A stretch of DNA of 34,688 nucleotides from Bacteriovoracaceae bacterium. Lineage in GTDB: Bacteria > Bdellovibrionota > Bacteriovoracia > Bacteriovoracales > Bacteriovoracaceae. The translations under genes were made by a program, and so were the position numbers. This document shows, piece by piece, positions 5,255 to 33,999 of the stretch. Every line of letters begins with the position of its first letter. Position 1 is the stretch's first letter. The notes below the pieces were generated by a model. That model worked only from the letters and a program-made list of their open reading frames with translations. It did no database searches and was not told where the DNA came from. Location of the stretch: assembly GCA_049599895.1 (NCBI GenBank), contig JBMYPC010000014.1:1-34688 (forward strand), in the 5' to 3' direction.

Positions 5255-5379
5255 CTGCTTGATATTAAAGAAGTGTTGGATTCTTAACAGGGCTATATCT
5301 TTTATAGCTTTTACCCTTTCAAAATCTATTTTTGCTAAGATTGAAGGGCTATCAACTGAATTTTTTGTTTAGGATTTTT

Positions 5380-6003: not shown

Positions 6004-6008
6004 TTAAG

Positions 6009-7355
6009 ATGAGCAAAGATTTCCTAATTATTGAAGATGACGAACTATCGAGAGTGACTCTCGTCACCAAACTTTCAAATTATGGAAGCGTCCTTGAGGC
6101 CAAAGATTTAAAATCAGCTTTAGAATGTGCAAAAGACTTCAATGGCAAAATTGCCTTTGTGGATCTTGACCTTGATTCACCACTGGCGGGTTTAGAGCTT
6201 ATCGCTCCTTTAAAGAAAGCTGGAGCCTACGTCGTCGTTTTAAGTGGAAGAGAAGATGATGATTCAGTTCTTTCTGCTTACGAGCGAGGCTGTAATGATT
6301 TTATCGCTAAGCCTTTTTCCCCAATGGCCTTAAGCCTTGTTCTTCAAAAGTTTAATATTGGCCAAAAGTCTTCTGAGCTTGAAAAGTTCTTTAAGGAGAA
6401 CTTTTTAACTATGGATCAGGACTTAATTCTTCAAATCTCAAAACTTAAAGAAACTCTTTATGCCAATCGCCCAATATTAATCCAAGGTGAAACGGGGACA
6501 GGGAAAAGTCTTCTGGCAAAACTGATTCATGACTTCTTTTTAGAGAAGAAAGGACCATTTGTTCACTTGAATGTCTCAGAGATCCCAGAGAATTTGATTG
6601 AATCAGAACTTTTTGGTCATAAAAAAGGCGCTTTTACTGGGGCGACCAACGATAAGCTTGGAAAGTTTAAACTTGCTGATGGTGGAGTTCTTTTTCTTGA
6701 TGAAATAGGAACTCTTTCAAAGACCATGCAAAATAAGCTTTTAAGAGTCATTGAAGAGAAATCTTTTTATCCTGTTGGCAGTGATCAATTGGAAAGCAGT
6801 GACTTTCGACTCTTAAGTGCGACATGTGAACCTCTTCAAAGTTATATTACAGAGGGAACGTTTCGAGAGGATCTCTATTTTAGGCTTTCAGGGCAGCTCA
6901 TAACGATTAAGTCATTAAGAGAGCGGTCTTTAGATATTGAAAAACTCATCCAGCATTTTCTCAAAGCAGGAAAGAGACGAGTGGTCTTTGAGAAGACTAC
7001 AAAAGATGCTCTTTTTTCTCATGATTGGCCTGGAAATGTAAGAGAGCTAGAGAATCTCATTCGTCTTCTTCAAACGAAGTCTGAGGGGATTATAAAGTTA
7101 GAGGATCTCCCTTTCACGGCAAAAGCTTCAAAAGCGAAACAGATCGTTATGGAGAGTCAACCTGATGTTGATCTTGTTAAGGAAGTGGGTCTTAAGGCCT
7201 ATATCGAATCAATTGAGGACCAGGTCGTAAAATCCATTTATGAATTAAATGAAAAAAAGGTCAGAAAAACTTTGGATGATCTTAAAATCTCATCCAATGC
7301 CTTTTATCGAGTAATGAAAAGAGTCGACGATCAAACAAAGGAAATCACTTCATGA
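6009..7355 (+). CDS. Sigma-54-dependent response regulator (NtrC/LuxO-type: REC-AAA+-HTH)
   Basis: REC (IIEDD, FVDLDL, LSG, FIAKP); Walker A GETGTGKS, ESELFGHKKGAFTGA, LFLDEIG, FREDLYFRL, WPGNVREL; C-terminal HTH. Confidence 0.95.
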   Translation: MSKDFLIIEDDELSRVTLVTKLSNYGSVLEAKDLKSALECAKDFNGKIAFVDLDLDSPLAGLELIAPLKKAGAYVVVLSGREDDDSVLSAYERGCNDFIAKPFSPMALSLVLQKFNIGQKSSELEKFFKENFLTMDQDLILQISKLKETLYANRPILIQGETGTGKSLLAKLIHDFFLEKKGPFVHLNVSEIPENLIESELFGHKKGAFTGATNDKLGKFKLADGGVLFLDEIGTLSKTMQNKLLRVIEEKSFYPVGSDQLESSDFRLLSATCEPLQSYITEGTFREDLYFRLSGQLITIKSLRERSLDIEKLIQHFLKAGKRRVVFEKTTKDALFSHDWPGNVRELENLIRLLQTKSEGIIKLEDLPFTAKASKAKQIVMESQPDVDLVKEVGLKAYIESIEDQVVKSIYELNEKKVRKTLDDLKISSNAFYRVMKRVDDQTKEITS

Positions 7356-9627: not shown

Positions 9628-11067
9628 TTGAATTTTGATGCAATCGTAATCGGTGGGGGGCCTGCAGGCACAAGTGCAGCAACTTTACTAAAAAAAAATG
9701 GATTGAGAACTCTTTTATTGGAAAAAGAAGTATCAACTCCATATAAAGTTGGAGAGTCATTACTTCCCTCAGCTTTAGCATTTTTTGATATTTTAGGAGT
9801 TCGAGAGAAAGTTGAAAGTCATGGGTTTACCAAGAAGAATGGTGCATTTCTGAGATGGGGAAGAGACCCTGAGCCATGGAGTATAAACTTTGGCGAGTTA
9901 AGTGGAAATGAAACTTATAGCTACCAAGTCGTTCGTTCTGAATTTGATGAACTTTTATTGTCTCATGCAGAATCTGTAGGAGTTGAAGTCATACGGGGCG
10001 CTATGGTTAATGATGTTTCTTTTAGCGACAAAGGCATTAAAGCAATTACTTATGTGCAATCAGGAAGAGAGTATTCGGTAGAGGTGAATTATTTAATCGA
10101 TGCAACGGGGCAAAGAGGTTTATTATCTAATAGATATTTAAACTCCAGAGTACAAAATGAATCATTTCAAAATATTGCGATCTGGTCTTATTGGGAGGAG
10201 TATGAACCACTGCCAGGAGATGCTTCTGGAAATATAATAACAGCGGCATTTCGGGACGGATGGATCTGGGGAATACCTCTCCATGATGGGAGGTTGAGTG
10301 TTGGTGTTGTTCAGCATAAAGACCTATTTATGGAAAAGAGGACAAGGTCATCCATTGAAGAAATTTATGAAACTGCAATAAGTTGTTGTAAGGTCGTTTC
10401 GAGTCGTCTCGTAAATGCTCGTCAATGCGATCGGATTAGAACTGCAAAAGATTATTCTTATAAATCCAATGTTCTGGCAAGAGATAACTATTTTCTTGCT
10501 GGTGATGCTGCTTGTTTTCTAGATCCCGTTTTGTCCTCTGGTGTTCACCTCGCGATGCTGTCTGGAACCTTAGCCGCATGCTCGATAACAGGAATCTTGA
10601 ATAATGTTGTATCCGCCAAAGAGGCCATTGATTTTTATTCTAGTACTTATTCAAGTGCATATCTAAGATTTATGCATTTTTTAAGTGCGTTCTACAATCA
10701 AAACGATGATCAGAATTCATACTTTTGGAAAGCTCAGAGTATAGCTTCTAGTGATTCAATTAACCAGGATTTAAAGTCCGCATTTTTGAATCTCGTAACC
10801 GGTGTTAAAGATCTCGATGAAGTAGAGCTTCACTCTCGAATTAATAAGTTTATGAAAAATAAAGTAAATGAAAACTTAAATTGGAGAAAACAGAAAAAAA
10901 GCCTTAAAAATTTTTCGAATGCTTTGGAAAGAAAAAGACTTAAAGAAAACGAAGACATTTTTAATCTAATTGAAGGCTTTGATCCTAGTAAAATCAAAGA
11001 TGAGCGACTTGGTATTTCTATGAAATTCCTGGATGGTAAACTTTCACTTTTCAAAGGTTTTGCATAA
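9628..11067 (+). CDS. Flavin-dependent halogenase (phenolic/tyrosine type)
   Basis: GGGPAG, KVGESL (catalytic Lys), WIWGIP (WxWxIP) and GDAACFLDPVLSSGVHLA motifs; TTG start after GGAG. Confidence 0.92.
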   Translation: MNFDAIVIGGGPAGTSAATLLKKNGLRTLLLEKEVSTPYKVGESLLPSALAFFDILGVREKVESHGFTKKNGAFLRWGRDPEPWSINFGELSGNETYSYQVVRSEFDELLLSHAESVGVEVIRGAMVNDVSFSDKGIKAITYVQSGREYSVEVNYLIDATGQRGLLSNRYLNSRVQNESFQNIAIWSYWEEYEPLPGDASGNIITAAFRDGWIWGIPLHDGRLSVGVVQHKDLFMEKRTRSSIEEIYETAISCCKVVSSRLVNARQCDRIRTAKDYSYKSNVLARDNYFLAGDAACFLDPVLSSGVHLAMLSGTLAACSITGILNNVVSAKEAIDFYSSTYSSAYLRFMHFLSAFYNQNDDQNSYFWKAQSIASSDSINQDLKSAFLNLVTGVKDLDEVELHSRINKFMKNKVNENLNWRKQKKSLKNFSNALERKRLKENEDIFNLIEGFDPSKIKDERLGISMKFLDGKLSLFKGFA

Positions 11068-11085
11068 TTATTATTTGGAGGAAAT

Positions 11086-11973
11086 ATTAGCAACACGGGA
11101 CACTGGTATGCATTCATAGCCTTTTTTAGCTGGGGGATCTTACCTTTATATTGGAAAAGTATTGATTTTCTAGAAGCAGATGTAATTCTTGCTTATCGTA
11201 TAATTTTGTCTGCCATATCGATGTGCCTTTTTTATTTGTTGATTAAAAAAGGCAGAATGATTTTCGATATCCATCAAGTGTTAAAACATTTCCTTCCCTC
11301 TTTCTTTCTAGCGTCGAATTGGTTGATTTTTATTTATGCTGTGAATGAAGGACATCTTTTGGAGGTTGGATTAGGGTATTATCTCGCTCCAATCCTCAGT
11401 TGTGGAGTTGGGTTATTCCTATTTCATGAAAAAGTTAATTTGTTTAAGGGTCTTGCTATCTTTCTCGCGTGTGTAGGTGTTTTTTACTACTCTTTTTCTA
11501 TTGGTAGATTTCCAACCCTAGCAGTTTCTCTCGCTGTGACTTTTGTCCTTTATGGTGCTTCAAAAAAAATGGTAAAAACAAACCCTACAGAATCTTTGCT
11601 CTATGAATCTCTTGCGCTATTCCCCATTGCTCTTGCTTATGCTTTCCTTAAAGAGAAAAATATCAGTATGGTTGAATTGACATGGTCACAGGAAACCTTA
11701 GTTGCGATATCTGGTATTGTTACAGTTGTTCCTTTGATTTGGTTTTCTAGGGCGGCAAAACTATTGGAGTTCAATGTTCTTGGCTTTTTTCAATATATTG
11801 GGCCGACTACAAATTTTTTCTTAGCTTTATTTGTATTTAAAGAGAATTGCTCATCTGAGAAAATGGTAACTTTCATATTTGTTTGGTCGGCAGTTCTTAT
11901 TTTTATTTTTAGTCACAAACTTTCTTTTAGACTCGATGAATGGCGTAGTAACTTTCTCGAAAAAGTGAGCTGA
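11086..11973 (+). CDS. rarD: RarD-like EamA/DMT transporter (probable ATT start at 11086)
   Basis: The frame upstream of the track start gives ISNTGHWYAFIAFFSWGILPLYWK; NWLIFIYAVN, LGYY and GFFQYIGPT are RarD motifs. Confidence 0.85.
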   Translation: MSNTGHWYAFIAFFSWGILPLYWKSIDFLEADVILAYRIILSAISMCLFYLLIKKGRMIFDIHQVLKHFLPSFFLASNWLIFIYAVNEGHLLEVGLGYYLAPILSCGVGLFLFHEKVNLFKGLAIFLACVGVFYYSFSIGRFPTLAVSLAVTFVLYGASKKMVKTNPTESLLYESLALFPIALAYAFLKEKNISMVELTWSQETLVAISGIVTVVPLIWFSRAAKLLEFNVLGFFQYIGPTTNFFLALFVFKENCSSEKMVTFIFVWSAVLIFIFSHKLSFRLDEWRSNFLEKVS

Positions 11974-11975
11974 CG

Positions 11976-12962
11976 ATGAAAGAATCTGACATTCTAGTAA
12001 AGAAAATTTATGGTTACTATATTACACAATGTATAGGAGTGGCGGCTGAACTGGGTTTAGCTGATATACTTGGAGATAAAACACTTTCCGTTAAAGAGCT
12101 TGCTTCTGAAAGTATTGTAAATGAGGATGCGCTATATAGGATGCTAAGGTTGCTTTGTTCTGAGGATATTTTTGTCGAGGTGAAGGATAGGCATTTTTCA
12201 AATTCAAATATTTCGAAATATCTCAAGAAAGATCATGAAACAAGTTTAAATGGTCTTGCAAGGCTTCATTGTGACAAGCTTTGGTGGAACTCTTGGGGAG
12301 AACTTAGATTTTCGATTAAAGAGAACAAGCCTTCAACAGATTTTGTATTCAAGAAAGGTGCATTTCAGGTTATGAAGGAAAACAAGGAGATAAATGATAT
12401 TTTTAATTTTGCAATGACAAACTTATCTTCTCGTGATGCTCGCGCAGTAACAAAGGTGTTTGATTTTACGAAGTTTAAAAATGTAATTGATATTGGAGGT
12501 GGAGAAGGAGCTTTAATAAATGGAATTAAGAACCAACTAAGTGGGTTTAAGATAGACTTTGCTCTATTTGATCAAGGGCATGTCATAAAAAAAGTAACAT
12601 TAACTGATATTAATCTTGAGTTTGGCGACTTCTTTCAATCAGTACCTAAAGGTTATGACTGCTATATATTGAGACATATCTTGCATGACTGGAGTGATGA
12701 ACGTTGTGAAACAATTCTAAAAAATTGCGTAGAGGGAATGAAGCCAAACTCTACTTTATTGGTGATAGAACTCCTTTTAGAGAAAGGGAAGGAGTCGAGC
12801 ATTGCGAAGTACCGTGATATGAATATGTTGGTATCAATGCATGGAGGGAAGGAAAGATATATTAGCGAATATGAAAAATTGTTTTTGAGTGCAGGAGTAA
12901 AGTTAGTTGAAGTAATACCGCTCCCTGGTCAAATGAACATTCTTGTTGGAAAACGTTTATGA
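11976..12962 (+). CDS. SAM-dependent O-methyltransferase (methyltransf_2 with dimerisation domain)
   Basis: AAELGLAD dimerisation region; DIGGGEG, GDFF, ILHDWSD and GKER motifs. Confidence 0.93.
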   Translation: MKESDILVKKIYGYYITQCIGVAAELGLADILGDKTLSVKELASESIVNEDALYRMLRLLCSEDIFVEVKDRHFSNSNISKYLKKDHETSLNGLARLHCDKLWWNSWGELRFSIKENKPSTDFVFKKGAFQVMKENKEINDIFNFAMTNLSSRDARAVTKVFDFTKFKNVIDIGGGEGALINGIKNQLSGFKIDFALFDQGHVIKKVTLTDINLEFGDFFQSVPKGYDCYILRHILHDWSDERCETILKNCVEGMKPNSTLLVIELLLEKGKESSIAKYRDMNMLVSMHGGKERYISEYEKLFLSAGVKLVEVIPLPGQMNILVGKRL

Positions 12963-14059
12963 GATTAATTATTTATACTTTCCTTATTTTTTCTTGCTTC
13001 ATTAACAGGCTCAACTCCGCAACAATTGGCTATGGATATTCTTATGTGATGACTGATAGACAAGAGTTTGTATATATGGGTTTCCTAATGGGGCTAAAGC
13101 AACATTTAAATCGCCCCTTGGGGGAGAACTCTCTATTTTTAAAAAAGTCTACCGCTAAGAATATGATGAAACCATTTCATATCGCTATGGAACTTCAAAA
13201 AAATGCCGATCCTTTCATCGTTGGGTTCGCAACTAGTCACGAGGCCTTAATGGCAGCGAAAGCCATTAAGGGAAAGAAGAAGATCTTTATTTCAGCAGTT
13301 GCTAAAAGTTCAGAGCTTTCTAAATTTGGAGAAAATGTCTTTAGCATTAATAGTTCAAATGAAGATACAACTCTTGTCGCATTGAATTTAGTTAAAAAGA
13401 AACTAAATCTAAATAATGGAATAATGATTACTAATCCACACAATGCTTTCAGTAGTAACTTGGATTCACTATACCGAAAGGAGCTAAAAGCACTTGAAGG
13501 ATTAAATGTTCAGACACTGTTTACAGATCAAATGGGTAATGTCGATATCAAACAACTTAAATATATTGTGGAGCAAGGGGCTCAGTTTATTATTGTTAAC
13601 ACTTATATCAGGAGAAGTTTTGGTATTTTAGAGGGATTGAGAAAAATCAATAAAAATTTGCCATTAATTACAAATAGTTCATGGGTTATTGATGACATAG
13701 AGGAGGTGAAAAGACTTGTAACAGATAAATCACTCGATATTTATAGCTTTGAAGTTATTGATAGAACAACCAAAGAGTACTCACATCTAAGCAAGTTGGC
13801 TAAGTCTGAATATGGAACAACTCCTGTTCCTCACATGGTATATGGCTATGATTTAGGTGTCGTTGTTGCAGACTTAATTAACCGAACAAAAGGAAAACTT
13901 AGCTATGAAAATATCTTAATGGAAATTAAAAAAAATAGCTGTTTTAAAATGACAAGCTCTGGAGGCTTGTGTCTGCCAAAAGAGGGAGGAAATGCAATTC
14001 GTGAGGTTTTTATCGTAAAATTCTCTAAGGGGAAAGGCTTCATTAAGGTCTCTGAATGA
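12959..14059 (+). CDS. Periplasmic binding protein, LivJ/branched-chain amino acid type; no permease nearby
   Basis: Signal peptide; FIVGFATS, IFIS-A-SSEL-NVFS and YGYD motifs; overlaps the kinase start. Confidence 0.75.
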   Translation: MRLIIYTFLIFSCFINRLNSATIGYGYSYVMTDRQEFVYMGFLMGLKQHLNRPLGENSLFLKKSTAKNMMKPFHIAMELQKNADPFIVGFATSHEALMAAKAIKGKKKIFISAVAKSSELSKFGENVFSINSSNEDTTLVALNLVKKKLNLNNGIMITNPHNAFSSNLDSLYRKELKALEGLNVQTLFTDQMGNVDIKQLKYIVEQGAQFIIVNTYIRRSFGILEGLRKINKNLPLITNSSWVIDDIEEVKRLVTDKSLDIYSFEVIDRTTKEYSHLSKLAKSEYGTTPVPHMVYGYDLGVVVADLINRTKGKLSYENILMEIKKNSCFKMTSSGGLCLPKEGGNAIREVFIVKFSKGKGFIKVSE

Positions 14060-16026
14060 AATCTAGAAGCATTCTGAAAAAGATTCTTGTTTTACAGTAT
14101 TCTACAATGTTTGTAATTGCAACAATCGCCTTTCTTTTAAACTTGTTCGCATTAACAAAAAGATCTGAGGGGCAAATCAAAACAGTTCTTTTAGAATTAA
14201 AGGAGTCAATCTCTGTTAAGAAAGAAGAACTTCAGTCGTATGATTTACTTGGGTTGAACGATGCGATTTTGATGACAATTAAAGAGATCGAGCTTCAGGG
14301 GAATAGTAGCCCTTTAATGGTTTTGTCTAAAGAGGAGATAAAGCAAGGGGAACATGTTGTGCTTGAATTAAGTCAAAATAAAGTTATTGCGACTGATTTA
14401 TCTAACCTGGAGTTCTCTGTTTGGGGATATTTAACCAATGAATTAACTGTAATTATTTTCGCAACAACCTTAGTGTTTTTTATTATTAGTGCTTTTACTT
14501 ACAGAATCTTAAAGAAAGACATACTGAATCCAATAAAAGAAGCTATAAAACTGATGCATGTTGCACAGTTCTCTGGACTGGATAAAGTTACTGCTCATGG
14601 AGAGATTCGTTTTCTTCTTGATAATATTAAAAATTATCACCGCTCAGCCTTGGCAAAAGAAAGTGAGAAGCAAATGTTCGACATGGCAAAGAAGGTTGCC
14701 CATGATATTCGTTCACCTGCTGCAGTTCTCGATATTGCTGTAGCTGAAACGAGTGGTATAGACCCTGCCCAAAAAAGAGTTTTGAGAGAGTCTGTTTTAC
14801 GAATACAAGATATTGCAAATAATTTACTAGAGAATAATCGTAAGTTCGAAAGCAACAACATCAATGAAGCAATTCTTGTTCTGCCACTAATTAACAAAAT
14901 TATTAGTGAAAAACGGTTACAGTTTAGAAGTAATTCAAACGTGAATATTCATGTTCTTGTTAAGAAGAACTCATACTTTGCTCATGCAGAGATAAATCCC
15001 AATGAGCTTAAGCGTGTCATATCTAACATTGTTAACAATTCTGTTGAAGCCATAGGAAAAGATTTAGGAGAAGTCTGTATCTGTCTTGAACAGACTGAGA
15101 AACAAGTTAAAGTTCAAGTGATTGACAATGGTCCAGGAATTCATCGTTCAGTTGTAGAGGCTGTAAATCACAAAAAACCCATTAGTTATGGAAAGTCAAA
15201 TGGAAATGGACTTGGCCTATTATCCGCCAAATCGTTTGTTGAGCATATGGGTGGAAGTTTTAATTTAAACTTAAATTCAGAGGGAGGAACGACAGTTGAA
15301 ATGGTATTCCTTAGAGGTAGACCTCCATTGGGTTATGTCTCGTCTTTAAAAATTGCTCAAGATTATTGCCTTGTCTTTTTGGATGATGAAAAATCGATTC
15401 ATGAGATGTGGAAAGAAAAGTTTAAAAATATAAAAAACAAAAAAATTCACATATATAGCTCTTCTGAGCTTAGGTCCTTCGTAAAGGATTATAAAGGAAA
15501 GTTCATATTATTTAGCGATTTTGATTTAAATTCCGAATGTAATGAGTCTGGCCTTGATTTAATCTCAGAATTAGAATTAGAGAATGATTCAATTTTAGTA
15601 ACGTCATACTATGATGATCCCGAGATTCGTGAGCGATCGAGGAATGCAGGAGTTTCTATTGTTCCTAAAGCACTTGCTTTGCATCTGCCAATTGAAACAC
15701 AAAATGACCTTAAAACTGTTGTTCATATTGACGATGATCTACTGGTCAGAAACATATGGAAGGCAGGACTAGAAAAGAAAGGTATTAAATATGTCTCCTT
15801 TGACTCACCAAATGAGTTATTAGGTAGTTTACAGAGTTTGTCAAAGGATTGGAGTTTTTATATCGATTATGACTTGTCTAGTGAGATAAGTGGTGTGGAG
15901 TTGTCAGAGGTTCTTTTTAGCAAAGGTTTTAAGAATCTTTATCTCTCAACCGGCTTTGAAGCCTCGGAGTTTCATAATGTTTCTTATCTTAAGGGGGTTG
16001 TTGGAAAAGAATTACCTGTGCACTAA
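14056..16026 (+). CDS. Hybrid sensor histidine kinase A (TM-HisKA-HATPase-REC-REC)
   Basis: KVAHDIRSP, SNIVNNSVEA, DNGPGI and GNGLGL motifs; two receiver domains (LDDE..SDF..TS..K; IDDD..ID..STG..K). Confidence 0.93.
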   Translation: MKSRSILKKILVLQYSTMFVIATIAFLLNLFALTKRSEGQIKTVLLELKESISVKKEELQSYDLLGLNDAILMTIKEIELQGNSSPLMVLSKEEIKQGEHVVLELSQNKVIATDLSNLEFSVWGYLTNELTVIIFATTLVFFIISAFTYRILKKDILNPIKEAIKLMHVAQFSGLDKVTAHGEIRFLLDNIKNYHRSALAKESEKQMFDMAKKVAHDIRSPAAVLDIAVAETSGIDPAQKRVLRESVLRIQDIANNLLENNRKFESNNINEAILVLPLINKIISEKRLQFRSNSNVNIHVLVKKNSYFAHAEINPNELKRVISNIVNNSVEAIGKDLGEVCICLEQTEKQVKVQVIDNGPGIHRSVVEAVNHKKPISYGKSNGNGLGLLSAKSFVEHMGGSFNLNLNSEGGTTVEMVFLRGRPPLGYVSSLKIAQDYCLVFLDDEKSIHEMWKEKFKNIKNKKIHIYSSSELRSFVKDYKGKFILFSDFDLNSECNESGLDLISELELENDSILVTSYYDDPEIRERSRNAGVSIVPKALALHLPIETQNDLKTVVHIDDDLLVRNIWKAGLEKKGIKYVSFDSPNELLGSLQSLSKDWSFYIDYDLSSEISGVELSEVLFSKGFKNLYLSTGFEASEFHNVSYLKGVVGKELPVH

Positions 16027-16043
16027 CGACTTAGATAATTGAA

Positions 16044-16145
16044 ACTCGTGATGAGCCTTTATCTCACGAACGGATTCACTGAGCTTGCAGGCTTTGCTTT
16101 TATTGTTTCGATTTCGACGATTCTGATTGTGATTGCGAGGAGGGG
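16044..16145 (+). repeat. 102-bp direct repeat, copy 2 (orphan 3' end of the 79-aa gene; right border of the cassette)
   Basis: Identical to 9398-9499; starts 17 nt after the kinase stop; the frame continues RRGLCFKGCFLSC-stop. Confidence 0.97.
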
Positions 16146-16189
16146 ATTGTGTTTTAAGGGATGTTTTCTTTCGTGTTAAGATTAGAGTT

Positions 16190-16795
16190 ATGAAGATATT
16201 AAATATCCTAGAAACAACTTTAGAGGCTGAAGGGGAAACCTACTTCTTTAGAAAGGGCAAAAGAGAAGATATTCCAAAAGCTACGGAATGCATAAATCTT
16301 GCATACGATATGTGGCTCGAAGATGGCTTCAAGCAAAGAGATAAGACAGAGGATGAAGTCTCAAAATATTTTCAGAAAGATGGATACATTTTAGAGAACA
16401 AGGACCATGAAATCATTTCTGTTGGATGCGTCAGTAAAGTGTATCCCATTTTTGAAGACAAAAAGATTACTCTTCAATGTTCTCACCAATGTTACTCGGC
16501 TGGCCTTAACGAACTTGGAGAAAAACTATCTCTGCAAAGTGATACCTCAGGACTTTTCTTTTATGGGCTTGCGGTCTTACCAAAGTATGCGAAAAAAGGA
16601 ATTGGAGAAGTTTTTTTGCGAAAAGGTTTCGATGTTGCTAGAGAAATGAAAGTTTCTTTTTGTTATCTTGAAACTGGTCTTGAGACTTGGTTGGTGGATT
16701 GGTATCGACGCTTTGGGTTTGAAGTAGTTGGGAGCGAGAGAGTTGAGGGGATTGGGAAGAGTACGGTTGTGATGGTTCAGAAATTTGAAAATTAA
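16190..16795 (+). CDS. GNAT family N-acetyltransferase
   Basis: LAVLPKYAKKGIG (motif A) and LVDWYRRFGFE; the track start at 16133 lies inside the repeat, so ATG 16190 is preferred. Confidence 0.88.
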   Translation: MKILNILETTLEAEGETYFFRKGKREDIPKATECINLAYDMWLEDGFKQRDKTEDEVSKYFQKDGYILENKDHEIISVGCVSKVYPIFEDKKITLQCSHQCYSAGLNELGEKLSLQSDTSGLFFYGLAVLPKYAKKGIGEVFLRKGFDVAREMKVSFCYLETGLETWLVDWYRRFGFEVVGSERVEGIGKSTVVMVQKFEN

Positions 16796-16816: not shown

Positions 16817-17134
16817 ATGGAAAGCATAATTAGTATTTACAGAATTAAAAACAGTGGAAAGAAGCATGTTGAGGATTTAGTCCAAACTCTAACAGAAAGG
16901 TTTGAGGATTCTTTAGAAACATTGGATGAAGCTGGAGTAAAAATTGAAAGCATTTTCATAAAAAATGATCGATTATATACCTACAAACTTGTTAGAAATA
17001 TAGAAGAGATGAGGAAAATTCAAAAGAGCTCAAATAAAGCAATTCATTCAATCATTAGGCCAATTGTTCAAGAATATCTAGAGTTTGAAGAAGAGATAAT
17101 TGCAGAAATAAACTTTATTGTTTCTTCTTTATAA
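16817..17134 (+). CDS. Small hypothetical protein (DUF6176-like, dimeric alpha/beta barrel)
   Basis: ETL-EAGVKIESIF pattern; 105 aa; GAGAG RBS. Confidence 0.6.
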   Translation: MESIISIYRIKNSGKKHVEDLVQTLTERFEDSLETLDEAGVKIESIFIKNDRLYTYKLVRNIEEMRKIQKSSNKAIHSIIRPIVQEYLEFEEEIIAEINFIVSSL

Positions 17135-18410
17135 CCCCAGGATAATACTTCTCAAAGAAAACAGAAGTCTCTTTAGGATCAGCTCTTAAGAATGTCTTTA
17201 TATGTGGAATCAAAAGAAGTCCTGGAACAAGTAACAGAACCCCTGTGCCCATCATTTGTAAGGTGACTTTGGTATTATAAGATTCAATTATCAATCCAGC
17301 CAAAGCAATTCCAATAGGTTTTATACCTCTTGTAAAAAACTGCAAACTCGAAAAAATTCTAGAACGATAATGATCTGGAATTGATAGTGCCATTTGAGTT
17401 TTTATAGGAATATTTGTAATCGAGCATCCAATACCGAAGATTAATAAGAGAAATGGTAAAATATAAGAGTTCGATATCAAGGAAAAGAGAATAAATGATG
17501 ATGAGATAAGGAGTGTACCAAGTATTAATACTCCGTCAGCTTTAATTTTACGACAAAGGTATCCAATAAATAACCCGCCCAGAATTGCACCGATTCCTTG
17601 GCCAGCCTGTGTAAGCCCATATACCCAAGAATCATGATTAAGGTCAGACTTTATTAAAACAGGGAGAACTATAACGAGTGGCGAGATAGAAAAATTAATA
17701 AACATCGCAACTAAACTTAACCCAAATAGAGTCGGAAGTTTAAAGAGAACTCTCAGTCCATCAATAATTTCTTCTGCGAATGAGGAAATTTTAAAACTTT
17801 TCAAGACAGGCTTCTTAGACGCACTAGAGGTTGTCTTGACTTTCATAAAAGCAGCTAAGAGAGATGCAATAAAAAATGTTGATGCATCTAAAATAAAAGC
17901 CTCTCCGACACCAAGAAAGGCAACAATTAAACCCCCTGTAGCGCTTCCAATGATTGCTCCTAGGGAAGTGATAATTTGAGAGTGTCTCATTGCGTGAAAA
18001 AGATGTTTATCTGCAACTAATTGAGGAACAATGCTATTTTCAATACTAAGGAATAAAGCTGAGCCAATGCCATACAAAATAAAGATAATTATCACCAGCG
18101 GTAGATAGAAGATGTCCATAAAGACCATTATGCTAATAATAACAATGAGTGATCCTCTCCATATGTCACTAATAATGGCAATCCCTTTACGTGAAAACCG
18201 ATCACCTAATGGTCCAAGAATGGGTAAGAGAGCGTAATTGAAAAATGACAAAGGTGCAATAATAGAAGACATAACTGTCGCGGAACCTGTTTTCTCTAAA
18301 ATCCACCAGGCAATAGCAATTGTGTTTATGGAATCGCCGGCTCCTGAAATGAACTGACCAATTCTAAAAAGCCAGAAGCTTTTTCCAAGGGTTTTGATTT
18401 GGTTTAGCAT
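17115..18410 (-). CDS. MFS transporter (EntS/macrolide-efflux-like, about 12 TM)
   Basis: GQFISGAGD, GPLGDRFSRK and IPDHYRSRIFS motifs; ATG 18410 avoids overlap with the kinase (track start 18452). Confidence 0.9.
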   Translation of the reverse strand: MLNQIKTLGKSFWLFRIGQFISGAGDSINTIAIAWWILEKTGSATVMSSIIAPLSFFNYALLPILGPLGDRFSRKGIAIISDIWRGSLIVIISIMVFMDIFYLPLVIIIFILYGIGSALFLSIENSIVPQLVADKHLFHAMRHSQIITSLGAIIGSATGGLIVAFLGVGEAFILDASTFFIASLLAAFMKVKTTSSASKKPVLKSFKISSFAEEIIDGLRVLFKLPTLFGLSLVAMFINFSISPLVIVLPVLIKSDLNHDSWVYGLTQAGQGIGAILGGLFIGYLCRKIKADGVLILGTLLISSSFILFSLISNSYILPFLLLIFGIGCSITNIPIKTQMALSIPDHYRSRIFSSLQFFTRGIKPIGIALAGLIIESYNTKVTLQMMGTGVLLLVPGLLLIPHIKTFLRADPKETSVFFEKYYPGVIKKKQ

Positions 18411-18423
18411 AACTAAGGCCTTT

Positions 18424-20478
18424 TTAAGATTCCCAGGGAGGGGTTTTGCCAATGACCTTCTTTATAAATGGAGAATCTTTTAACTCCTTATCGATATGTC
18501 CTGTCGATAGTATTATGTGATGGTACCCTTTTCGAAAAAGCTGCTCCGCGATCTCAAGGCCTCTCGTATCATCACCAAGTTCCTGGTCGATATAGAAGAT
18601 ACTATCAAAAGGAATAGTCGAAAGTTTTGGTTCAAGCTCTTGAAAACGGGAGAAGCTTAAGAGATTGATGCTTTGTTTTTTTGCTTGAGCTTTCCATGTT
18701 AGTATGACTAGAGGATCATCATCTAAGTGGACTATAAGCTTATTTTTATGATTACTCAGGGGAACACTTTTCACGGAAACATCCATAATCATATTTTTGG
18801 GAATCATCTTCAATCCCATTTCTATACACTTTTTTTGAATTTCTTCGTCTTCAAAGTGGGATGTTACTAGGACTGATTTCTTTGCAACTTGAAACTTCTG
18901 AATAAGGTCAAGTCCTGATTCATTAAATCCATTTAATTCGAAATCTGAAAGGAGAAGGAAATTGTCAGATGTCAAGCTTAAGACTTTTTCAAGTTCTTCG
19001 GGGGTGGAAATATGTACTTTTTTATTTGAAATTGACTTAAGTTTTTCAGCCCAAACTTTATGAATCGTATTCTCGTCATCGAGAATAATGACTTGAGTAT
19101 CATTGTCTAACTTTAGAGACGAAATAAACCACTTGGGTGGAAGTGCTAAAGGCAATTGTATTCTTATAGAAGTGCCCCATTTTGGGCTTGAGTTGATAGT
19201 TAGCTTACCAGAAATAGAGTTAATGTATTGGCTTGCTGAAGATAAGCCGATACCATTTCCCATAGGTTTACCATAAGTTATTTCTTTACCCTCTTTGATT
19301 TTTGTTAAAACATCATATGGTATGCCATGACCATTATCTTGAACCTCAATAACTGCCCAAGGGGATTCTGAGTATGCTTTAATTTCAATTTGTCCGTCTT
19401 TTCCGGAGATAGCTTCTGCTGAATTGTTTATAATGTTAGAGAGGACTCTTTTAAATTCGATTGGATCTAGTTTTGCAAACAGATTGTAAGAATCTTTTTC
19501 TTGGTGCAATGAAATCGTTAGGTTTAGAAAGTTTCGAAATTGAATTCTTTTTTCTGTTAACAAGCTTTCAATAAGAGGTTTTAAAGCGACGGTTCCGTTT
19601 GTTTGGGGATGAGGCCTTTCATTTTCCAAAAGGTTGTTTGCGATATCTTGTATTCTTGTTGTTGCTTCGATTATGAGAGTTTTTTTATCTGATGTAATGC
19701 CTTCCAAATCTTTTGATACCATCTCTAGTGCCGATACTGGAGAGCGAATGTCATGAGCTACACGTTTCGCTATTGTAGTTAAAGCTTTATCTTCAGTTAT
19801 TTTGATGAGGTCCTTTTTGTAATGGTCAATTCTTTTTATTGCAGAGTCAAAACCATTGAATATCGAACTAACTTCAGAGTAAGAGGTATGATCTTTAAGC
19901 TTATATAAGTCGATGACTTCAATATCTGATTTTTCAAGGGTCTCAGCAAGATAAGTAATTGATTTTGAGACGTTCTTTCCGATCATCCTTATGAGCAGGA
20001 CTTGAACAATGGATAATATAATTAGCGAAAGAAATAATAAACTGATTATTTTTAATATAGCACTTTGGAAGAAACTTAGAGAGTAGGCAATTTCTATTCT
20101 CGCTGCAATGTTCTCTTTGTTTTCATCGAAGAAGATTTTAGATGAAATTCTGAATATATTGTCTGTGTCACCTGTTTTTGAGAAATTGCATATTATAGTA
20201 CCATCCTCTCTTAGGATGTTTACTAAAAGAATGTCGCTATCTTGAAAAACGGCTTTGCATTTTCTGTAAACTTCGCTGTCCCTCCCAATTAACACATCAT
20301 TTAAAACACTTTCTTGAAAAAGGTTGTGAAAGTTTTGAAGTTGAGATCTGAAATGAGATTGAATCTGATTGTTGAGTATTAAATAACAAAGTAATGAAAA
20401 AAGAATGAATACCAAAATGTTCACAAGGTAAGTTGGAATTAGGAATGCTTGCCGGATACTAAGCTTTTTAATTTTCAA
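18424..20478 (-). CDS. Hybrid sensor histidine kinase B (paralog of kinase A)
   Basis: RVAHDIRSP, SNIINNSAEA, DNGHGI and GNGIGL motifs; two REC domains; probable TTG start 20478 after AAGGAAG (track start 20523). Confidence 0.93.
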   Translation of the reverse strand: MKIKKLSIRQAFLIPTYLVNILVFILFSLLCYLILNNQIQSHFRSQLQNFHNLFQESVLNDVLIGRDSEVYRKCKAVFQDSDILLVNILREDGTIICNFSKTGDTDNIFRISSKIFFDENKENIAARIEIAYSLSFFQSAILKIISLLFLSLIILSIVQVLLIRMIGKNVSKSITYLAETLEKSDIEVIDLYKLKDHTSYSEVSSIFNGFDSAIKRIDHYKKDLIKITEDKALTTIAKRVAHDIRSPVSALEMVSKDLEGITSDKKTLIIEATTRIQDIANNLLENERPHPQTNGTVALKPLIESLLTEKRIQFRNFLNLTISLHQEKDSYNLFAKLDPIEFKRVLSNIINNSAEAISGKDGQIEIKAYSESPWAVIEVQDNGHGIPYDVLTKIKEGKEITYGKPMGNGIGLSSASQYINSISGKLTINSSPKWGTSIRIQLPLALPPKWFISSLKLDNDTQVIILDDENTIHKVWAEKLKSISNKKVHISTPEELEKVLSLTSDNFLLLSDFELNGFNESGLDLIQKFQVAKKSVLVTSHFEDEEIQKKCIEMGLKMIPKNMIMDVSVKSVPLSNHKNKLIVHLDDDPLVILTWKAQAKKQSINLLSFSRFQELEPKLSTIPFDSIFYIDQELGDDTRGLEIAEQLFRKGYHHIILSTGHIDKELKDSPFIKKVIGKTPPWES

Positions 20479-22003
20479 CTTCCTTTTTAGTAGACCACAA
20501 TATTTTCCATAATTCACTTTCATATCGAAAATTCGTTTCAGGAATTGTTATTGCTTTTCTATGTATAACAGGAACGTTTATTCGATAAAGAGGGATAATA
20601 AACCATTGATCTTCAAATTCTCTAAACGCTGAGGAGTAAAGGTTAAGTCTCATTGACTGATCAGTGGTAAATCGAATGTCGTTGATCTTTTCAAAAAAAT
20701 GATTGTTAGGAAAAACTCCATATCTTAGTGGCGATGTTGGTTTTATAATGTCAATAAAGCCATCAGGGTCGGGGAAGTTCCCAAAGTATCGACCACCTAT
20801 AATATCATAGTTGTTATTAGCCATATGCTTTACTAGTGTGTTTGGGGTCGCTTTTATCAAATTGATTTCAGCCCCAAGTTTATGAAAAATTTCTGTGATA
20901 GAATCAAAGAAAGAGTCAGTGAAAACGCTCTTCATCAATACGATGTTGATTTTCTTATGGCTGAGGGATCGACCCCACCTCTTTTTTACCTCATTAATTG
21001 ATGTGACGTACTTTTCTCTTTTATAGTATTTTAATGGCATCACTCCTTTTGGAAGAAAAGTGGGGGAGATTTCGTGCAGAAACGACTTATTGCTAGAGAA
21101 TCTTGCTTCTTGCATTATTAAGGAGGCAATATCTTTGCGAATTTCTTTTTTCAAGAACAGTTTTGAGGTGGCGTTGAAGTACATGTGAGCGATCGCTAAA
21201 GAGCGAGATTTTGTGATCAAGGTGTTTTTGGGGAGGGAGAGATTTTCCAATTCAGACAAAGGTAGTCCGAGAGCAATATCTAACAGACCTTTTTTGAATA
21301 GTTGAAATGCTTTTCTTGTTGTTTCAATAGACCTAACTGATATTGAATTCAGTTCTGGCAAGTTGCCTTTATAAAGTTCATTTTTATTGAATTCCCACCG
21401 CTTTGATTTTGAGTTGAAGTTGTTTGTCATTGGTCCTGAGAAACGATGATCTTCCTTTGATAAAATAGCAAAACCAGGCATAGATAGAACATGTAAAAAA
21501 GGGGGGTATGGTTTGATTAGTTTAATACTTAATTTTGTAGGAGAAAGAACTTGAATAGATTTGTGAATTTTACCCTTTTTAATGGTTTTATCTTCTGCAA
21601 GTAATGGTTTTAGATAACCAGCGACCATAGAGTTATGCCAGAAGTGTCTAGAAATACTGATTGCGACATCTTTAGCTGTCACTCTTTTTTTTAGATGATG
21701 AAAGAAGGCATCTTTTACGATTTCGAACTCGTAGACTGAGCCATTTTCTTTAATCTTCCATTTCTTCGCGAGATCTCCAACAATTGTACCTTTTTCAGAG
21801 ATTCGAACAAGTGTTTGGCTGGTGCATTGAAGTAGTAAAAAGTGTTCCATAAAGGCAAGTTTTGTGGGATCTAACGTTTTTGGTAGATGGGTGATTCCAA
21901 CTTCAAGCATAGAGTTTTCTTTTCTGAGGTTAACTTTTTCAAGTGCCTGAAGAGAAGTGAAACCAAAAAGTACAAACATAATGATAAAATTATAGAAGCT
22001 CAT
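20468..22003 (-). CDS. Family-5 (OppA/DppA-like) peptide-binding protein; no permease nearby
   Basis: Signal peptide; TLDP, TLVR, GDLAKKW, VTAKDV and IIPLY motifs. Confidence 0.88.
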   Translation of the reverse strand: MSFYNFIIMFVLFGFTSLQALEKVNLRKENSMLEVGITHLPKTLDPTKLAFMEHFLLLQCTSQTLVRISEKGTIVGDLAKKWKIKENGSVYEFEIVKDAFFHHLKKRVTAKDVAISISRHFWHNSMVAGYLKPLLAEDKTIKKGKIHKSIQVLSPTKLSIKLIKPYPPFLHVLSMPGFAILSKEDHRFSGPMTNNFNSKSKRWEFNKNELYKGNLPELNSISVRSIETTRKAFQLFKKGLLDIALGLPLSELENLSLPKNTLITKSRSLAIAHMYFNATSKLFLKKEIRKDIASLIMQEARFSSNKSFLHEISPTFLPKGVMPLKYYKREKYVTSINEVKKRWGRSLSHKKINIVLMKSVFTDSFFDSITEIFHKLGAEINLIKATPNTLVKHMANNNYDIIGGRYFGNFPDPDGFIDIIKPTSPLRYGVFPNNHFFEKINDIRFTTDQSMRLNLYSSAFREFEDQWFIIPLYRINVPVIHRKAITIPETNFRYESELWKILWSTKKEVEN

Positions 22004-23152
22004 TATAATATCTTTTTTCCTAGAGGATTCTTATTATTATATGTGGTTATTAGGATATCTCTATCCAGATAAACCTTAGTAGCTTTATACTTAGAAGAGG
22101 ATAAATAGCTTAATGCTTTAGAAGGAATCAATGACAGGAGTTGAATTACCCCATGAGATCTAAGTTTTGCAAGTCTTTCAACTCGAGATGTGTTGCAAGT
22201 GAAAAAAGTATCTTTCTTAAAGTTTTCTGGAAATATAAGTGACAAATTGCTTATGTCTGAAACTTCTTTCTTAGTTTTGAAATCTGGTGTTTCAAATTGA
22301 TAAACTTTTTTATCTCTTAAAAAACGAAAAAAAATAGGGAATATCTCCTCGAGACAGTTGTTCAACCTCAAAAGGCATAAATGTTGAAAAGTTATTGTTA
22401 AGAACTGCATCTCTATAGCTCTTTGTTTCTCGAATAATTACCCTAATTGGACAATTCTCAATATCTTGAAGGCTGTTTAAAGTTTGGTATATCTGCAATT
22501 CATAATCATTTAAAGTTTCAATACTTGATACGTAACCATGAGTCATTGCACATACAGCCTCAGTAGTGAAATCTAAGTCTGAAATTTCGTTGAGGCACTG
22601 AAGCCCGAAATTATTAAAGGTTTTTTGGGAGTCGGGGATCAAGCGTGTTTGAGACGGTAAGATGTAATCATTGAAAATCGATTCTATATCGAGAGGAAAA
22701 ACTACTAATGAATCTTTTGAGTTTGAAATAATAATATTTTCAAGGTGAAGGTCTCCAATTCCGAACCACGACAACAAAGCAACGATAGCGCCGAGGGATT
22801 CGTATTGGCTTAAAGGAACATCAGTAGAAAAAGTAGATTCGAGAGGTAAATATGTTAATGACCCTGAATAGATTTCATCCCCTGAGAAGGTGACTTCCAA
22901 ATCTGGGATAGATTGAAATGGAGAGGTTTTATTAGAATTTTTAAATATTTCGTTTATGTAGATTCGAAGTGGGCTTTTACCAGAAAGAAAAAGATATTCC
23001 CAGAAAACTGATCTCGGCTTTAAAATTTGATCAGGTCCTTGTCTAGTTACTTGGCGACCGAAGTTGTGACGGTCGCCAAAAGTTTTTTGCAAATTGTTAG
23101 GCAGCTTAGATTGTATCAACTCCAACAACCTCTTCTTTTTCAACTTCTTCAA
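22003..23152 (-). pseudogene. Stand-alone LanM-type dehydratase domain (DUF4135), split by a 1-nt frameshift (or sequencing error) at A8 22327-22334
   Basis: GDRHNFGRQV, LKPRS, GIGDLHLENII, PLDIESIF, RVIIRETKSY and QLSRGDIPYFF motifs; removing one base joins ORF 22003..22410. No LanC cyclase domain. Confidence 0.82.
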
Positions 23153-23174
23153 TTTCTACAATTGTTACGTTCAT
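23106..23174 (-). CDS. 22-aa putative RiPP precursor MNVTIVEIEEVEKEEVVGVDTI
   Basis: Not in the ORF track; AAGGAGA RBS; first ORF of the operon, overlapping the DUF4135 start; acidic leader-like stretch followed by GVDTI. Confidence 0.65.
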   Translation of the reverse strand: MNVTIVEIEEVEKEEVVGVDTI

Positions 23175-23226
23175 GATACATTCTCCTTGATGTGATTATT
23201 TGGACTAATAAAAGCCAAGTGATGTC

Positions 23227-23254
23227 ATTTTATGTAAAGCAAGATGATAGTCAA
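23227..23254 (-). promoter_or_regulatory. Putative sigma-70 promoter of cassette B
   Basis: Minus strand TTGACT-N16-TAAAAT upstream of the peptide RBS. Confidence 0.45.
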
Positions 23255-23343: not shown

Positions 23344-24501
23344 ATGAAAGCGTATTTAAACAATTTTTCTCTTCAAGTAATAATATCCACGCTACCAAAT
23401 AGTATTATCGTAGTGTTCATCCCTCTCTTCCTTGAACACTTAGGCATTCAAGGGGTTTATCTTGGGTTAGCCTTTACGAGTGTTAGATTATTGTCAATTC
23501 TAGGGGGGCTCTCAACTCCATACTTCTTAAGGCGATTTCCTCCAAGTTCGGTTTCATTTGGAGCAGAAGTCCTTAATTTTGGACTCATTGTTGTTGCGAT
23601 TCTGGCACTTCATAATACTTTCGGTGCTCTTTTTTTTATTGCAATAATATTAAAGGGATCTTCAATAGGGTTAATTAATACTACTAGGTTCTATTGGCTG
23701 AAGAATCTCGAAGATAAAACCTTATCTAAAAGAATTTTCATTGCAGTGAACTCAATCTATCAGTCTACATATGGCCTTGCTGGAGTTCTTTATCTTTATC
23801 TAAGTGAATGCGAAAATATTCTTTATTATCTCTTGTATATCGATGCTTTTTCGTCACTTTTAGGAGCTTTTCTATTTTATTCCTTAAGATCATTTAACGT
23901 AAGAGAACAAGAAGTTAACTCTAGCGTTTCAAAGTTTTTTGAAATTTTTCGATTTCCATTTGCCTACCTTACTTTAATGGATTTTACCTTTGCCCTGGCA
24001 ATGGGAGGGATTAATGTGTTGTTAGTGAAATATGGGAGCGTTTATCTTGAAAACTTTGGAGGGTATGGAGGAGCCCTCTTAATTTATGGGATATTTTATT
24101 TTCTTGGAGGTGTTTTTATTAATAAAAATAAAAATGATCAATTCTATGACCGGTTATTCAGGTCCCCATATATATCTTTAGGACTATTGTTAGGGTTTTC
24201 TCTTCTTGCAATTGGTAGTGATAGAGTCTTCTTTTCTATTTTGGGGTTAGTATTAATCTTTTTTTTAGGGCCAGTTTATTCTCTTGTAATTCAATCGAAA
24301 TGGTTGGACTTGAGCCCAGGGGCGGAGGCTTCCCAATATTTTGCTTCGAGGACATTTTTAGTTCAAGTTGTAATGGCTGTTGGTGAATCTTTGTATGCTG
24401 CTTTAAGCAAAGACATATATATAAGAATTTTACTTGTTGTGATTTTCTTTCTTTTGAATGTTTTTGTTTCAAAGAAAATAGCATCAACAGAAAGGTCTTA
24501 A
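23344..24501 (+). CDS. Divergent MFS-like transporter
   Basis: 385 aa with about 12 hydrophobic segments in two halves; divergent from the peptide operon. Confidence 0.75.
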   Translation: MKAYLNNFSLQVIISTLPNSIIVVFIPLFLEHLGIQGVYLGLAFTSVRLLSILGGLSTPYFLRRFPPSSVSFGAEVLNFGLIVVAILALHNTFGALFFIAIILKGSSIGLINTTRFYWLKNLEDKTLSKRIFIAVNSIYQSTYGLAGVLYLYLSECENILYYLLYIDAFSSLLGAFLFYSLRSFNVREQEVNSSVSKFFEIFRFPFAYLTLMDFTFALAMGGINVLLVKYGSVYLENFGGYGGALLIYGIFYFLGGVFINKNKNDQFYDRLFRSPYISLGLLLGFSLLAIGSDRVFFSILGLVLIFFLGPVYSLVIQSKWLDLSPGAEASQYFASRTFLVQVVMAVGESLYAALSKDIYIRILLVVIFFLLNVFVSKKIASTERS

Positions 24502-33258: not shown

Positions 33259-33999
33259 TTGCCCCAATTCTGGTTTGAAGATATTTGGGGAATCGGGTCA
33301 GCATCATCAGCTAAATTAAAAGCACTCGGTATCAAGACGGCTAAGCAATTTAGAGACTATGAAAATGGTCGCCAAATTAAGAGAATCTTTACAAAAGTAG
33401 GTCTTCAAACAAAAGAAGAGCTCAAAGGTCATCCAAGATTCAAGTTAGAACTCAAACCTGCAAAGAAAAAAGAAATTATGTGCTCAAGAACATTTGGAAG
33501 TTCTCAGTACGATATCGAGGCCCTTAAAGAATCCATAGCTAATTATACTTTCGATGCCATGGAGAAACTTCGTAATCAAGAATCAGTTTGTAACAAAATT
33601 GATATTTTCTTTAGAACAAGCCCCTTTAAGAATACCCCACAACATTACGCTTATAAGCAAATTAAGGTTTCAGGGGATACTGGTAACAGCTTAAGGGTTA
33701 TAAAATACGCCCTTTCAGCAGTTGAAGAAATCTTTAGATATGGCTTTGAATACAAAAAAGCTGGTGTAAGGATAGGGGGGATTAAAGACGAAAACTTTTC
33801 TCAGTTAAGCCTAATCGAAGAAAATGACACTAGTGAATCAAAAGAACTAATGAAGGTTATAGACAAGATTAATCGAATCTATGGCCCAAGAACCATCAAA
33901 TCCCTTTCTTGCGGAGTAAATAATGAGGCCTGGAAGATGAACCGTGAGTTTAAATCTCCAAGCTATCTGACTGGTTATGGAGATCTCCCCAAAGTCTAA
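33259..33999 (+). pseudogene. umuC: N-terminally truncated Y-family DNA polymerase V subunit
   Basis: Homology starts at EDIWGIG (HhH); SRTFG, YKKAGV and C-terminal WKMNREFKSPSY are present; the catalytic N-terminal domain is missing. Confidence 0.88.

Follow-up and report, generated by a model that had tools for sequence, protein, structure and literature searches.

Modified-peptide signaling through histidine kinases is described mainly in Gram-positive bacteria, in which peptide quorum sensing includes the agr AIP-AgrC, ComX-ComP, nisin-NisK, Phr/Opp, and PrgZ systems. These systems have a small variable peptide, a maturase, an exporter, a cognate histidine kinase, and links to mobile elements, and the gene cassette described here resembles them in these respects; the co-encoded precursor, maturase, exporter, and histidine kinase by which such a system is recognized were all found in it. 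In contrast to them, the cassette has a Gram-negative host, a chemistry predicted to yield dehydro-amino acids, predicted export by an MFS transporter or by Sec, and sensing that apparently proceeds via an orphan family-5 solute-binding protein (SBP) docked on the histidine kinase (HK). Periplasmic binding proteins serve as co-receptors of membrane kinases in LuxP-LuxQ, TorT-TorS, and HptA-HptS, but these pairs use other binding-protein families, respond to small metabolites, and have no co-encoded RiPP.

With respect to the enzyme, CylM (5DZT) and LicM2 (6ST5) have a lipid-kinase fold, and in CylM, residues K274, D347, H349, N352, and D364 are assigned to phosphorylation and D252, H254, R506, and T512 to elimination in the available part of the structural report (PMC4550811). 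The cassette enzyme has a predicted fold of the same type and all nine catalytic positions, but at about 350 aa, compared with 980 to 990 aa for CylM and LicM2, it covers only CylM residues 246 to 684, lacks a cyclase, and is paired with cores mostly without Cys. Phospeptin (EmbA/EmbM of 'Ca. Eudoremicrobium malaspinii'), as outlined in PMC9259500 and PMC9505594, likewise involves one precursor and a sole cyclase-less LanM-type enzyme, needs no Cys, and is linear, with a sensor kinase reported in its cluster. However, the leader of EmbA is described as Nif11-type with a Gly-Gly site, and the elimination residues of EmbM as mutated, whereas the cassette precursors are either 22 to 31 aa or Sec-signal bearing, have a motif of their own, and accompany an enzyme with intact elimination residues and conserved SBP, HK, and MFS genes. 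In the phospeptin case, prediction from conserved residues went astray within this enzyme family (PMC9259500, as excerpted), which counts against the mechanism favored here. PoyF of the polytheonamides, in the portion of PMC9505594 available, is also a dehydratase domain without a cyclase that acts on Thr, but there it is joined by numerous other tailoring enzymes that modify a long proteusin with an NHLP leader, whereas the cassette enzyme is the sole maturase and its precursor has no NHLP leader. Bufferins (PMC11626156) provide a precedent for RiPP precursors with Sec signal peptides, although they differ in MNIO chemistry on Cys and copper binding, and no MFS-exported short form appears in the accessible part of that report. 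Four known identities do not fit: a lanthipeptide, by the missing cyclase and the absence of Cys from the peptide studied; a phospeptin, by the intact elimination residues and the absence of a Nif11 or Gly-Gly leader; a proteusin, by the absence of a Nif11/NHLP leader with a Gly-Gly site (the peptide has no Pfam match); and an Opp/Dpp/Nik ABC importer, by the absence of permease genes beside the SBP.

In the titles and abstract openings searched, no description of the cassette and no peptide signal for Bdellovibrionota were found, although the supplements of PMC9259500 (EmbM homologs) and PMC10676384 (DUF4135 network) may include the group. According to the parts of the reports available, a DUF4135 survey considered only proteins of at least 500 aa (PMC10676384), and a lanthipeptide survey took LanC domains as its anchor (PMC7268733); surveys of such design would leave the mini-dehydratase group out.

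The window, i.e., the whole stretch of DNA analyzed, comprises 34,688 nucleotides of a Bacteriovoracaceae bacterium, and it contains the following features of the cassette.

23344..24501, plus strand: divergent cassette-type MFS transporter, 385 aa, no Pfam match
23227..23254, minus strand: sigma-70-like promoter candidate, TTGACT-16-TAAAAT, 10/12 positions, weak
23182..23188, minus strand: Shine-Dalgarno sequence AAGGAGA, 7 nt 5' of the precursor ATG
23106..23174, minus strand: 22-aa RiPP-type precursor ORF, ATG at 23174, TAA at 23108-23106
23050..23080, minus strand: 11-bp RNA hairpin, directly 3' of the precursor stop and within the first enzyme codons
22310..23092, minus strand: N-terminal 260 aa of the mini LanM-type kinase/dehydratase (DUF4135), starting at TTG 23092 or TTG 23119
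22327..22334, minus strand: T8 run at which the enzyme frame changes; the first frame stops at 22310
22003..22335, minus strand: remaining ~110 codons of the enzyme (C-terminal part), read in the following frame and contained in ORF 22003-22410
20468..22003, minus strand: family-5 solute-binding protein (OppA/DppA/NikA fold), start overlapping the upstream stop, no permease alongside
18424..20523, minus strand: sensor histidine kinase with two TM helices, a periplasmic domain of ~105 aa, and a receiver-like C-terminal part
17115..18452, minus strand: additional MFS exporter (MFS_1/MFS_3) at the end of the same-strand gene run

The 22-codon ORF is very probably a genuine gene, encoding the precursor of a RiPP family that appears to be undescribed. 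The sequence-only reading had claimed a 22-aa ORF with a strong ribosome-binding site and a precursor-like character; the ORF and its AAGGAGA site were both found as claimed, and with a TAA in the same frame eight codons upstream, the peptide cannot begin earlier. The peptide consists of a 5-residue N-terminus, the family motif at residues 6 to 12, and a 10-residue tail, and it has no Cys, no double-Gly site, and no signal peptide. The earlier claim of a core with one Thr holds for the tail, in which the single Thr is penultimate, but another Thr occurs at position 4, in the N-terminal part of the peptide. Scored against a position-specific profile of 40 homologous upstream peptides, from which it had been left out, the window peptide reached 13.1; only 2 of the 24,085 ATG ORFs of 18 to 40 aa in the genome scored as high (it is itself included and ranks second), and among the 1,611 small ORFs with a Shine-Dalgarno-like site, the only one to do so was the window peptide itself. 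After shuffling, 178 of 20,000 versions scored as high as the original. None of the top 25 profile scores in the source genome was a convincing further orphan precursor. The exact peptide was absent from a 15-billion protein collection and had no match in Pfam, NCBIfam gave nothing meaningful for 43 precursor tails (none better than E 0.018), and the ESM Atlas gave no usable match for a long precursor; these blanks in Pfam, NCBIfam, and the ESM Atlas do not show novelty.

The promoter candidate is weak, with 4 such sites found against 2.1 expected. The hairpin (z = -3.4) could raise the precursor-to-enzyme mRNA ratio; across homologs, z was below -2 in 12 of 49 junctions compared with 4 of 49 control windows, a weak trend that is not generally conserved.

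The sequence-only reading also proposed that the 3' end of the ORF overlaps a TTG start of the enzyme at 23119. This codon is in the DUF4135 frame, the overlap covers the last 14 nt of the ORF, and GAGG lies 9 nt upstream, making it a possible start, but TTG 23092, 5 codons before the GDxH motif, fits the homologs better and is most simply taken as the start of the window enzyme (the DUF4135 ORF as called spans 22310-23152 on the minus strand). A start codon within 8 codons of GDxH was present in 38 of 48 curated homologous loci, and among 20 database homologs of 317 to 381 aa, most begin a few residues before the GDxHNFG motif. The enzyme frame of the window is open for 26 codons upstream of GDxH, which might hint at a fusion, but such an open frame is ordinary because at least 20 codons are open in 15 of the 48 loci. 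A continuous ORF from the peptide into DUF4135 occurred in none of the 48 other curated loci.

To place the ORF in a family, we read the DNA upstream of each enzyme in loci drawn from genomes and metagenomes and curated 49 non-redundant loci with a cyclase-less LanM-type dehydratase (DUF4135) of 330 to 385 aa and a stop-terminated ORF just upstream. The set excludes the following: duplicates; five distant DUF4135/LanM matches; L130, L144, and L167; 64 loci of high GC content, almost all from a Myxococcota-type clade of ~390 aa with no adjacent precursor and no SBP seen; a side branch without SBP (L003-L006, L008, L011, L135, L137, and L141), some members of which have Cys-rich precursors; L025 and L048, in which no upstream peptide was convincing; and two loci with <200 nt upstream, L044 and L161. 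Since the 49 loci were selected for having a peptide, their count cannot show that every such enzyme has one. The alignment of homologous upstream regions gave a shared leader-like motif, a variable tail, and a conserved stop, and the acidic leader-like region and short, variable, Thr-containing tail first noticed in the window were seen across homologs, supporting the precursor-like reading. The motif Φ[D/N/E/S]ΦxxΦ[E/Q/K] was found in 41 of the 49 upstream ORFs, followed by a tail of 9 to 24 residues, and in its strict form it was missing from the other 8. In the last six positions, 109 of 294 residues were Ser or Thr, whereas these two accounted for 52 of 490 residues between positions -22 and -13; 48 precursors had at least one of them within the last five residues. 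The tails were small or acidic and highly variable, with Cys in the last 14 residues of only 5 precursors and a G-G/A/S site in 4. Four near-identical precursor pairs showed 7 synonymous codon differences and 1 non-synonymous difference over 17 codons each. Two further measures were set aside: column entropy of the motif is partly circular, as the motif had served to choose the columns, and a codon-usage comparison is biased by stops in the other frames. A separate small gene, a conserved candidate recognition motif, and a variable modifiable tail, by which a precursor-maturase pair is recognized, were therefore all present.

The precursors fell into two forms. Thirty have no signal (28 of 22 to 31 aa, one of 37 aa, and a 72-aa repeat form), and the peptide of L170, like that of the window, has 22 aa. 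The 19 long forms include 17 with a Sec-like N-terminus and 2 with an N-terminus missing from the data; those with Sec-like signals, which were assigned by length, hydrophobicity, and eye, have 64 to 126 aa. In Fluviispira multicolorata (L024), the precursor at 6764-6982 carries the motif as tandem 8-residue repeats with Cys.

The Bdellovibrionota cassette consists of a precursor, a mini-dehydratase, a permease-less family-5 SBP, and a membrane HK. In the window, the DUF4135 ORF, ORF 22003-22410, and the SBP, HK, and MFS genes follow the precursor on the same strand and are tightly coupled. Neighbors were named by Pfam for selected ORFs (64, 91, and 32) and then counted with profiles built from Pfam-confirmed members. 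Both SBP and HK genes lay within 6.5 kb in 41 of the 49 loci and in 33 of the 35 loci with at least 4.4 kb on both sides, and they were adjacent in 32 of 37 loci examined, although gene order varied (precursor-enzyme-SBP-HK, MFS-SBP-HK-precursor-enzyme, or divergent). Exceptions were L125, with a precursor and enzyme but without SBP, HK, and MFS; L159, without SBP and MFS; and L025, with an enzyme and SBP but no upstream peptide by the curation rule. DNA-binding regulators were seen near L021, L067, and L157 only, among the part of the neighbors scanned, and do not belong to the core. In L140, positions 4284-6932 hold an MFS transporter and a family-5 SBP in one 882-aa frame beside a split enzyme. 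No Dpp/Opp-type permease was matched in loci L001-L171 or the window (the control gave 9 in the source genome), which argues against import.

The export genes followed the form of the precursor. Among full-flank loci, an MFS gene was present in 20 of 22 with a no-signal precursor and in none of 13 with a signal peptide; among all loci, the counts were 24 of 30 no-signal and 0 of 19 long-form loci, where 2 of the 24 calls came from outside the cassette MFS profile (L046 from Pfam, L170 from size and 12 TM windows) and related loci are not independent, so that the counts overstate significance. The divergent window MFS scored 103 bits on that profile and was its only match in the genome; direct BLAST of the L170 membrane protein against it gave nothing. 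On a FastTree phylogeny of 61 enzymes, with three split enzymes left out and weak deep support, the short/long precursor label changed 5 times (shuffled mean, 14.9), and the window enzyme, with its short precursor, grouped with the long-form loci L015 and L145 (support 0.83). Enzyme and binding-protein identities were correlated (Spearman 0.66, 29 loci).

Of 401 genomes sampled from the phylum, 32 contained a match to the enzyme profile, as did 17 of 237 from the family; these counts include the source genome itself and the side branch. The cultured species Fluviispira multicolorata carries the cassette (L024), so the signaling idea is directly testable there, and Silvanigrella paludirubra has a close enzyme. 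TraG/TraC or TrwB genes adjoin the cassette in 6 of the 12 MFS-first loci (L151, L158, L160, L162, L164, and L165); none was found among the 32 larger window ORFs scanned, and plasmid records gave no match to the L150 enzyme.

Catalytic conservation points to dehydration as the chemistry. A PDB search with the enzyme profile matched only LicM2 and CylM, and all nine CylM catalytic positions are present in the window enzyme and nearly invariant among 46 cassette enzymes, with the elimination positions D252, H254, R506, and T512 kept in 42, 45, 46, and 43 of them, respectively. Because these phosphate-elimination residues are kept, dehydration is predicted, and the enzyme would dehydrate without forming rings; the window peptide would then yield one dehydrobutyrine, at its penultimate Thr. 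The AlphaFold model of the intact L015 enzyme, which is 33% identical to the window enzyme, had a pLDDT of 91.5 and matched CylM residues 246 to 684 (Z 15.8, rmsd 3.1, 273 aligned residues); the modeled protein comprises the kinase and elimination parts only, the first 245 residues of CylM and its cyclase being absent. No LANC_like match was found among 32 window ORFs, and among the neighbors scanned, a stand-alone LanC-like gene adjoined the mini-dehydratase, as in a split LanM, only at L029 (5670-6797; precursor without Cys) and L130 (4317-5438). In the side branch without SBP, to which L003-L005 (L132-L134), L137, and L138 belong, precursors of 57 to 63 aa containing Cys occur in L003-L005, some of the enzymes have 550 to 590 aa, and a glycosyltransferase neighbors L135 and L137. 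The Myxococcota-type ~390-aa members (L016 and most of L049-L117) are nested in the enzyme family, have no adjacent precursor or SBP, and share a neighboring gene in 39 of 57 cases, which in L016 encodes a DTW-domain protein.

The window enzyme itself is interrupted. Its frame changes directly after the IPYFF motif, and the C-terminal frame aligned with homolog profile positions 258 to 339 (hhalign probability 69.7, E 4e-5). Helix 310-329 of the L015 model, up to which the lipid-kinase domains align, falls within the ~110 residues lost, and judging from this model, the 260-aa product is probably inactive. A second DUF4135 gene was not found in the source genome (3.27-Mb assembly, 97% complete), which has only this one. 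Since the enzyme is frameshifted, the window copy probably makes little or no modified peptide and only listens, with its receptor and exporters intact. Interrupted enzymes occurred in 4 of 49 loci (the window, L140, L041, and L168) and interruptions in 1 of 108 SBP, HK, and MFS matches (Fisher p = 0.033), an only suggestive excess in which the two counts were made differently, assemblies can err, and loci are related.

The SBP and HK appear to form a sensor. The HK has two TM helices around the ~105-aa domain, for which no Pfam family and no solved sequence relative were found. A complex model of the window SBP and this domain gave a score of 0.61, whereas none of three controls scored above 0.00, and the runs had at least 87% of contacts in common, with a partner pLDDT of at least 83. 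The predicted interface includes SBP residues 43-46 and 137-141, numbered along the modeled mature chain, and kinase-domain residues 31-34 and 84-87. Among solved pairs, 116 of 157 attained the score mark, as did 2 of 215 mismatched ones, counts that hold only roughly with our own alignments. The model supports a predicted role of the SBP as co-receptor of the kinase and is silent on the ligand. Fold matches of the SBP include PrgZ and OppA. In the source genome, SBP and HK pairs of the same kinase type also occur without DUF4135, implying that the pair is a general sensor, for which the modified peptide is a putative ligand.

The mechanism that best accounts for these findings, with a probability of roughly 60%, is a dehydro-peptide signal that is made by the cassette, exported by MFS or Sec, and sensed by the SBP5-HK pair. 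In intact cassettes, the minimal LanM-type enzyme would recognize the conserved motif in the precursor, phosphorylate Ser/Thr residues of the tail, and eliminate the phosphate to give dehydroalanine or dehydrobutyrine without lanthionine rings. Short precursors of the window type would leave the cytoplasm via the cassette MFS transporter, and long signal-peptide precursors via Sec. The orphan family-5 SBP would bind the modified peptide in the periplasm and dock on the adjacent HK, which would relay to a regulator. A density- or element-sensing role may follow from this scheme; a point against it is the single Thr in the tail of the window peptide.

Four other accounts keep the precursor and enzyme. 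An unlikely one is that the peptide does not diffuse and acts within the periplasm or cytoplasm as an adaptor or reporter; the SBP and HK of the same cell would read its state of modification, which might reflect, e.g., ATP or the condition of the envelope. The 64- to 126-aa long forms with Sec-like signals would indeed remain periplasmic, and no conserved protease or outer-membrane channel was found in the cassette loci, but the variability of the tails and the conjugation genes at 6 of 12 loci of one arrangement fit identity or density signaling better. Candidate processing enzymes do occur singly: S9 peptidases lie beside L025 and L152, and erythromycin-esterase-family proteins beside L026 and L030. 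Also unlikely is an exported effector (antimicrobial, protease inhibitor, or prey-directed), with the SBP and HK providing autoregulation or protection in the manner of nisin. Bioactivity is common among LanM products, the cassette has an MFS exporter, and phospeptin, in the portion of PMC9505594 available, inhibits elastase and has a sensor kinase and regulator in its cluster; however, the tails of 9 to 24 residues are small or acidic and vary greatly, only 5 of 49 contain Cys, and the core has no cyclase, all of which argues against an effector, as does the finding that the receptor-type genes are the most conserved partners.

Improbable to a greater degree is a metallophore, in which the acidic modified peptide would chelate metal and the SBP, as a NikA/CntA-like receptor, would report metal status. 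The best NCBIfam match and several PDB matches of the SBP are nickel or metallophore binders, all far below the cut-off, and bufferins are Sec-exported RiPP metallophores in the account of PMC11626156 available, but no locus has a permease, the motif region holds most of the acidic residues, and the tails have no conserved His or Cys. Slightly less probable still is that the circuit is as in the dehydro-peptide mechanism but its final product is phosphorylated, as with phospeptin: the enzyme lacks the first 245 residues and the cyclase of CylM, and EmbM, of the same Pfam family, is described as stopping at phosphorylation (PMC9259500), whereas the elimination residues mutated in EmbM are all four kept here. 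Least probable by far, and already largely refuted, is the alternative raised by the sequence-only reading that the ORF is only the N-terminus of the enzyme, cut off from it by a single-base error or slippage in the A5 run (23140-23136): the open enzyme frame and the one-base shift at the T8 run of the same gene speak for it, but homologous enzymes begin close to GDxH without such an extension, the peptide tail and stop match a family of separate genes, and the sole contig covering the region, probably from the source sample and thus not independent, is base-for-base the same without a gap.

Beyond the dehydro-peptide mechanism itself, a more speculative and rather doubtful extension is a pheromone system of predatory Gram-negative Bdellovibrionota. 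In it, the smallest enzymes of the LanM type would produce dehydro-peptide pheromones whose tails are specific to the strain or element, and an orphan family-5 SBP docked on an HK would read them; export would have switched repeatedly between MFS and Sec, one branch would ride conjugative elements and may time their transfer, and recurrent loss of the enzyme with the receptor kept, of which the source genome would be an example, would give eavesdropping lineages. The cassette names a candidate signal, synthase, exporter, and receptor for Bdellovibrionota, and a LanM dehydratase of ~350 aa with a 7-residue candidate recognition motif would be useful for leader-recognition studies and peptide engineering.

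Further gene sets with related parts were observed in the source genome. Another SBP5-HK pair lies in L176 (2072-5510), and a further kinase of the same type in L177 (1551-3713), at a contig end. L173 (G000:C246:1-2478) contains an ATP-grasp protein immediately followed by a family-5 SBP, with contig ends on both sides, and is possibly another synthase-plus-sensor cassette. On the plus strand of the window, positions 9628-16795 encode a halogenase, an EamA exporter, an O-methyltransferase, a Peripla_BP_6 binding protein, an HK, and a GNAT protein, and this HK scored 343 bits on the cassette HK profile, indicating the same kinase type. The other SBP5-HK pair, the ATP-grasp and SBP5 genes, and the halogenase run imply that make-export-sense modules recur in this genome. 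Separately, a UmuC/DinB-like ORF at 33259-33999 of the window (plus strand), matching only C-terminal Pfam domains, is possibly a split gene.
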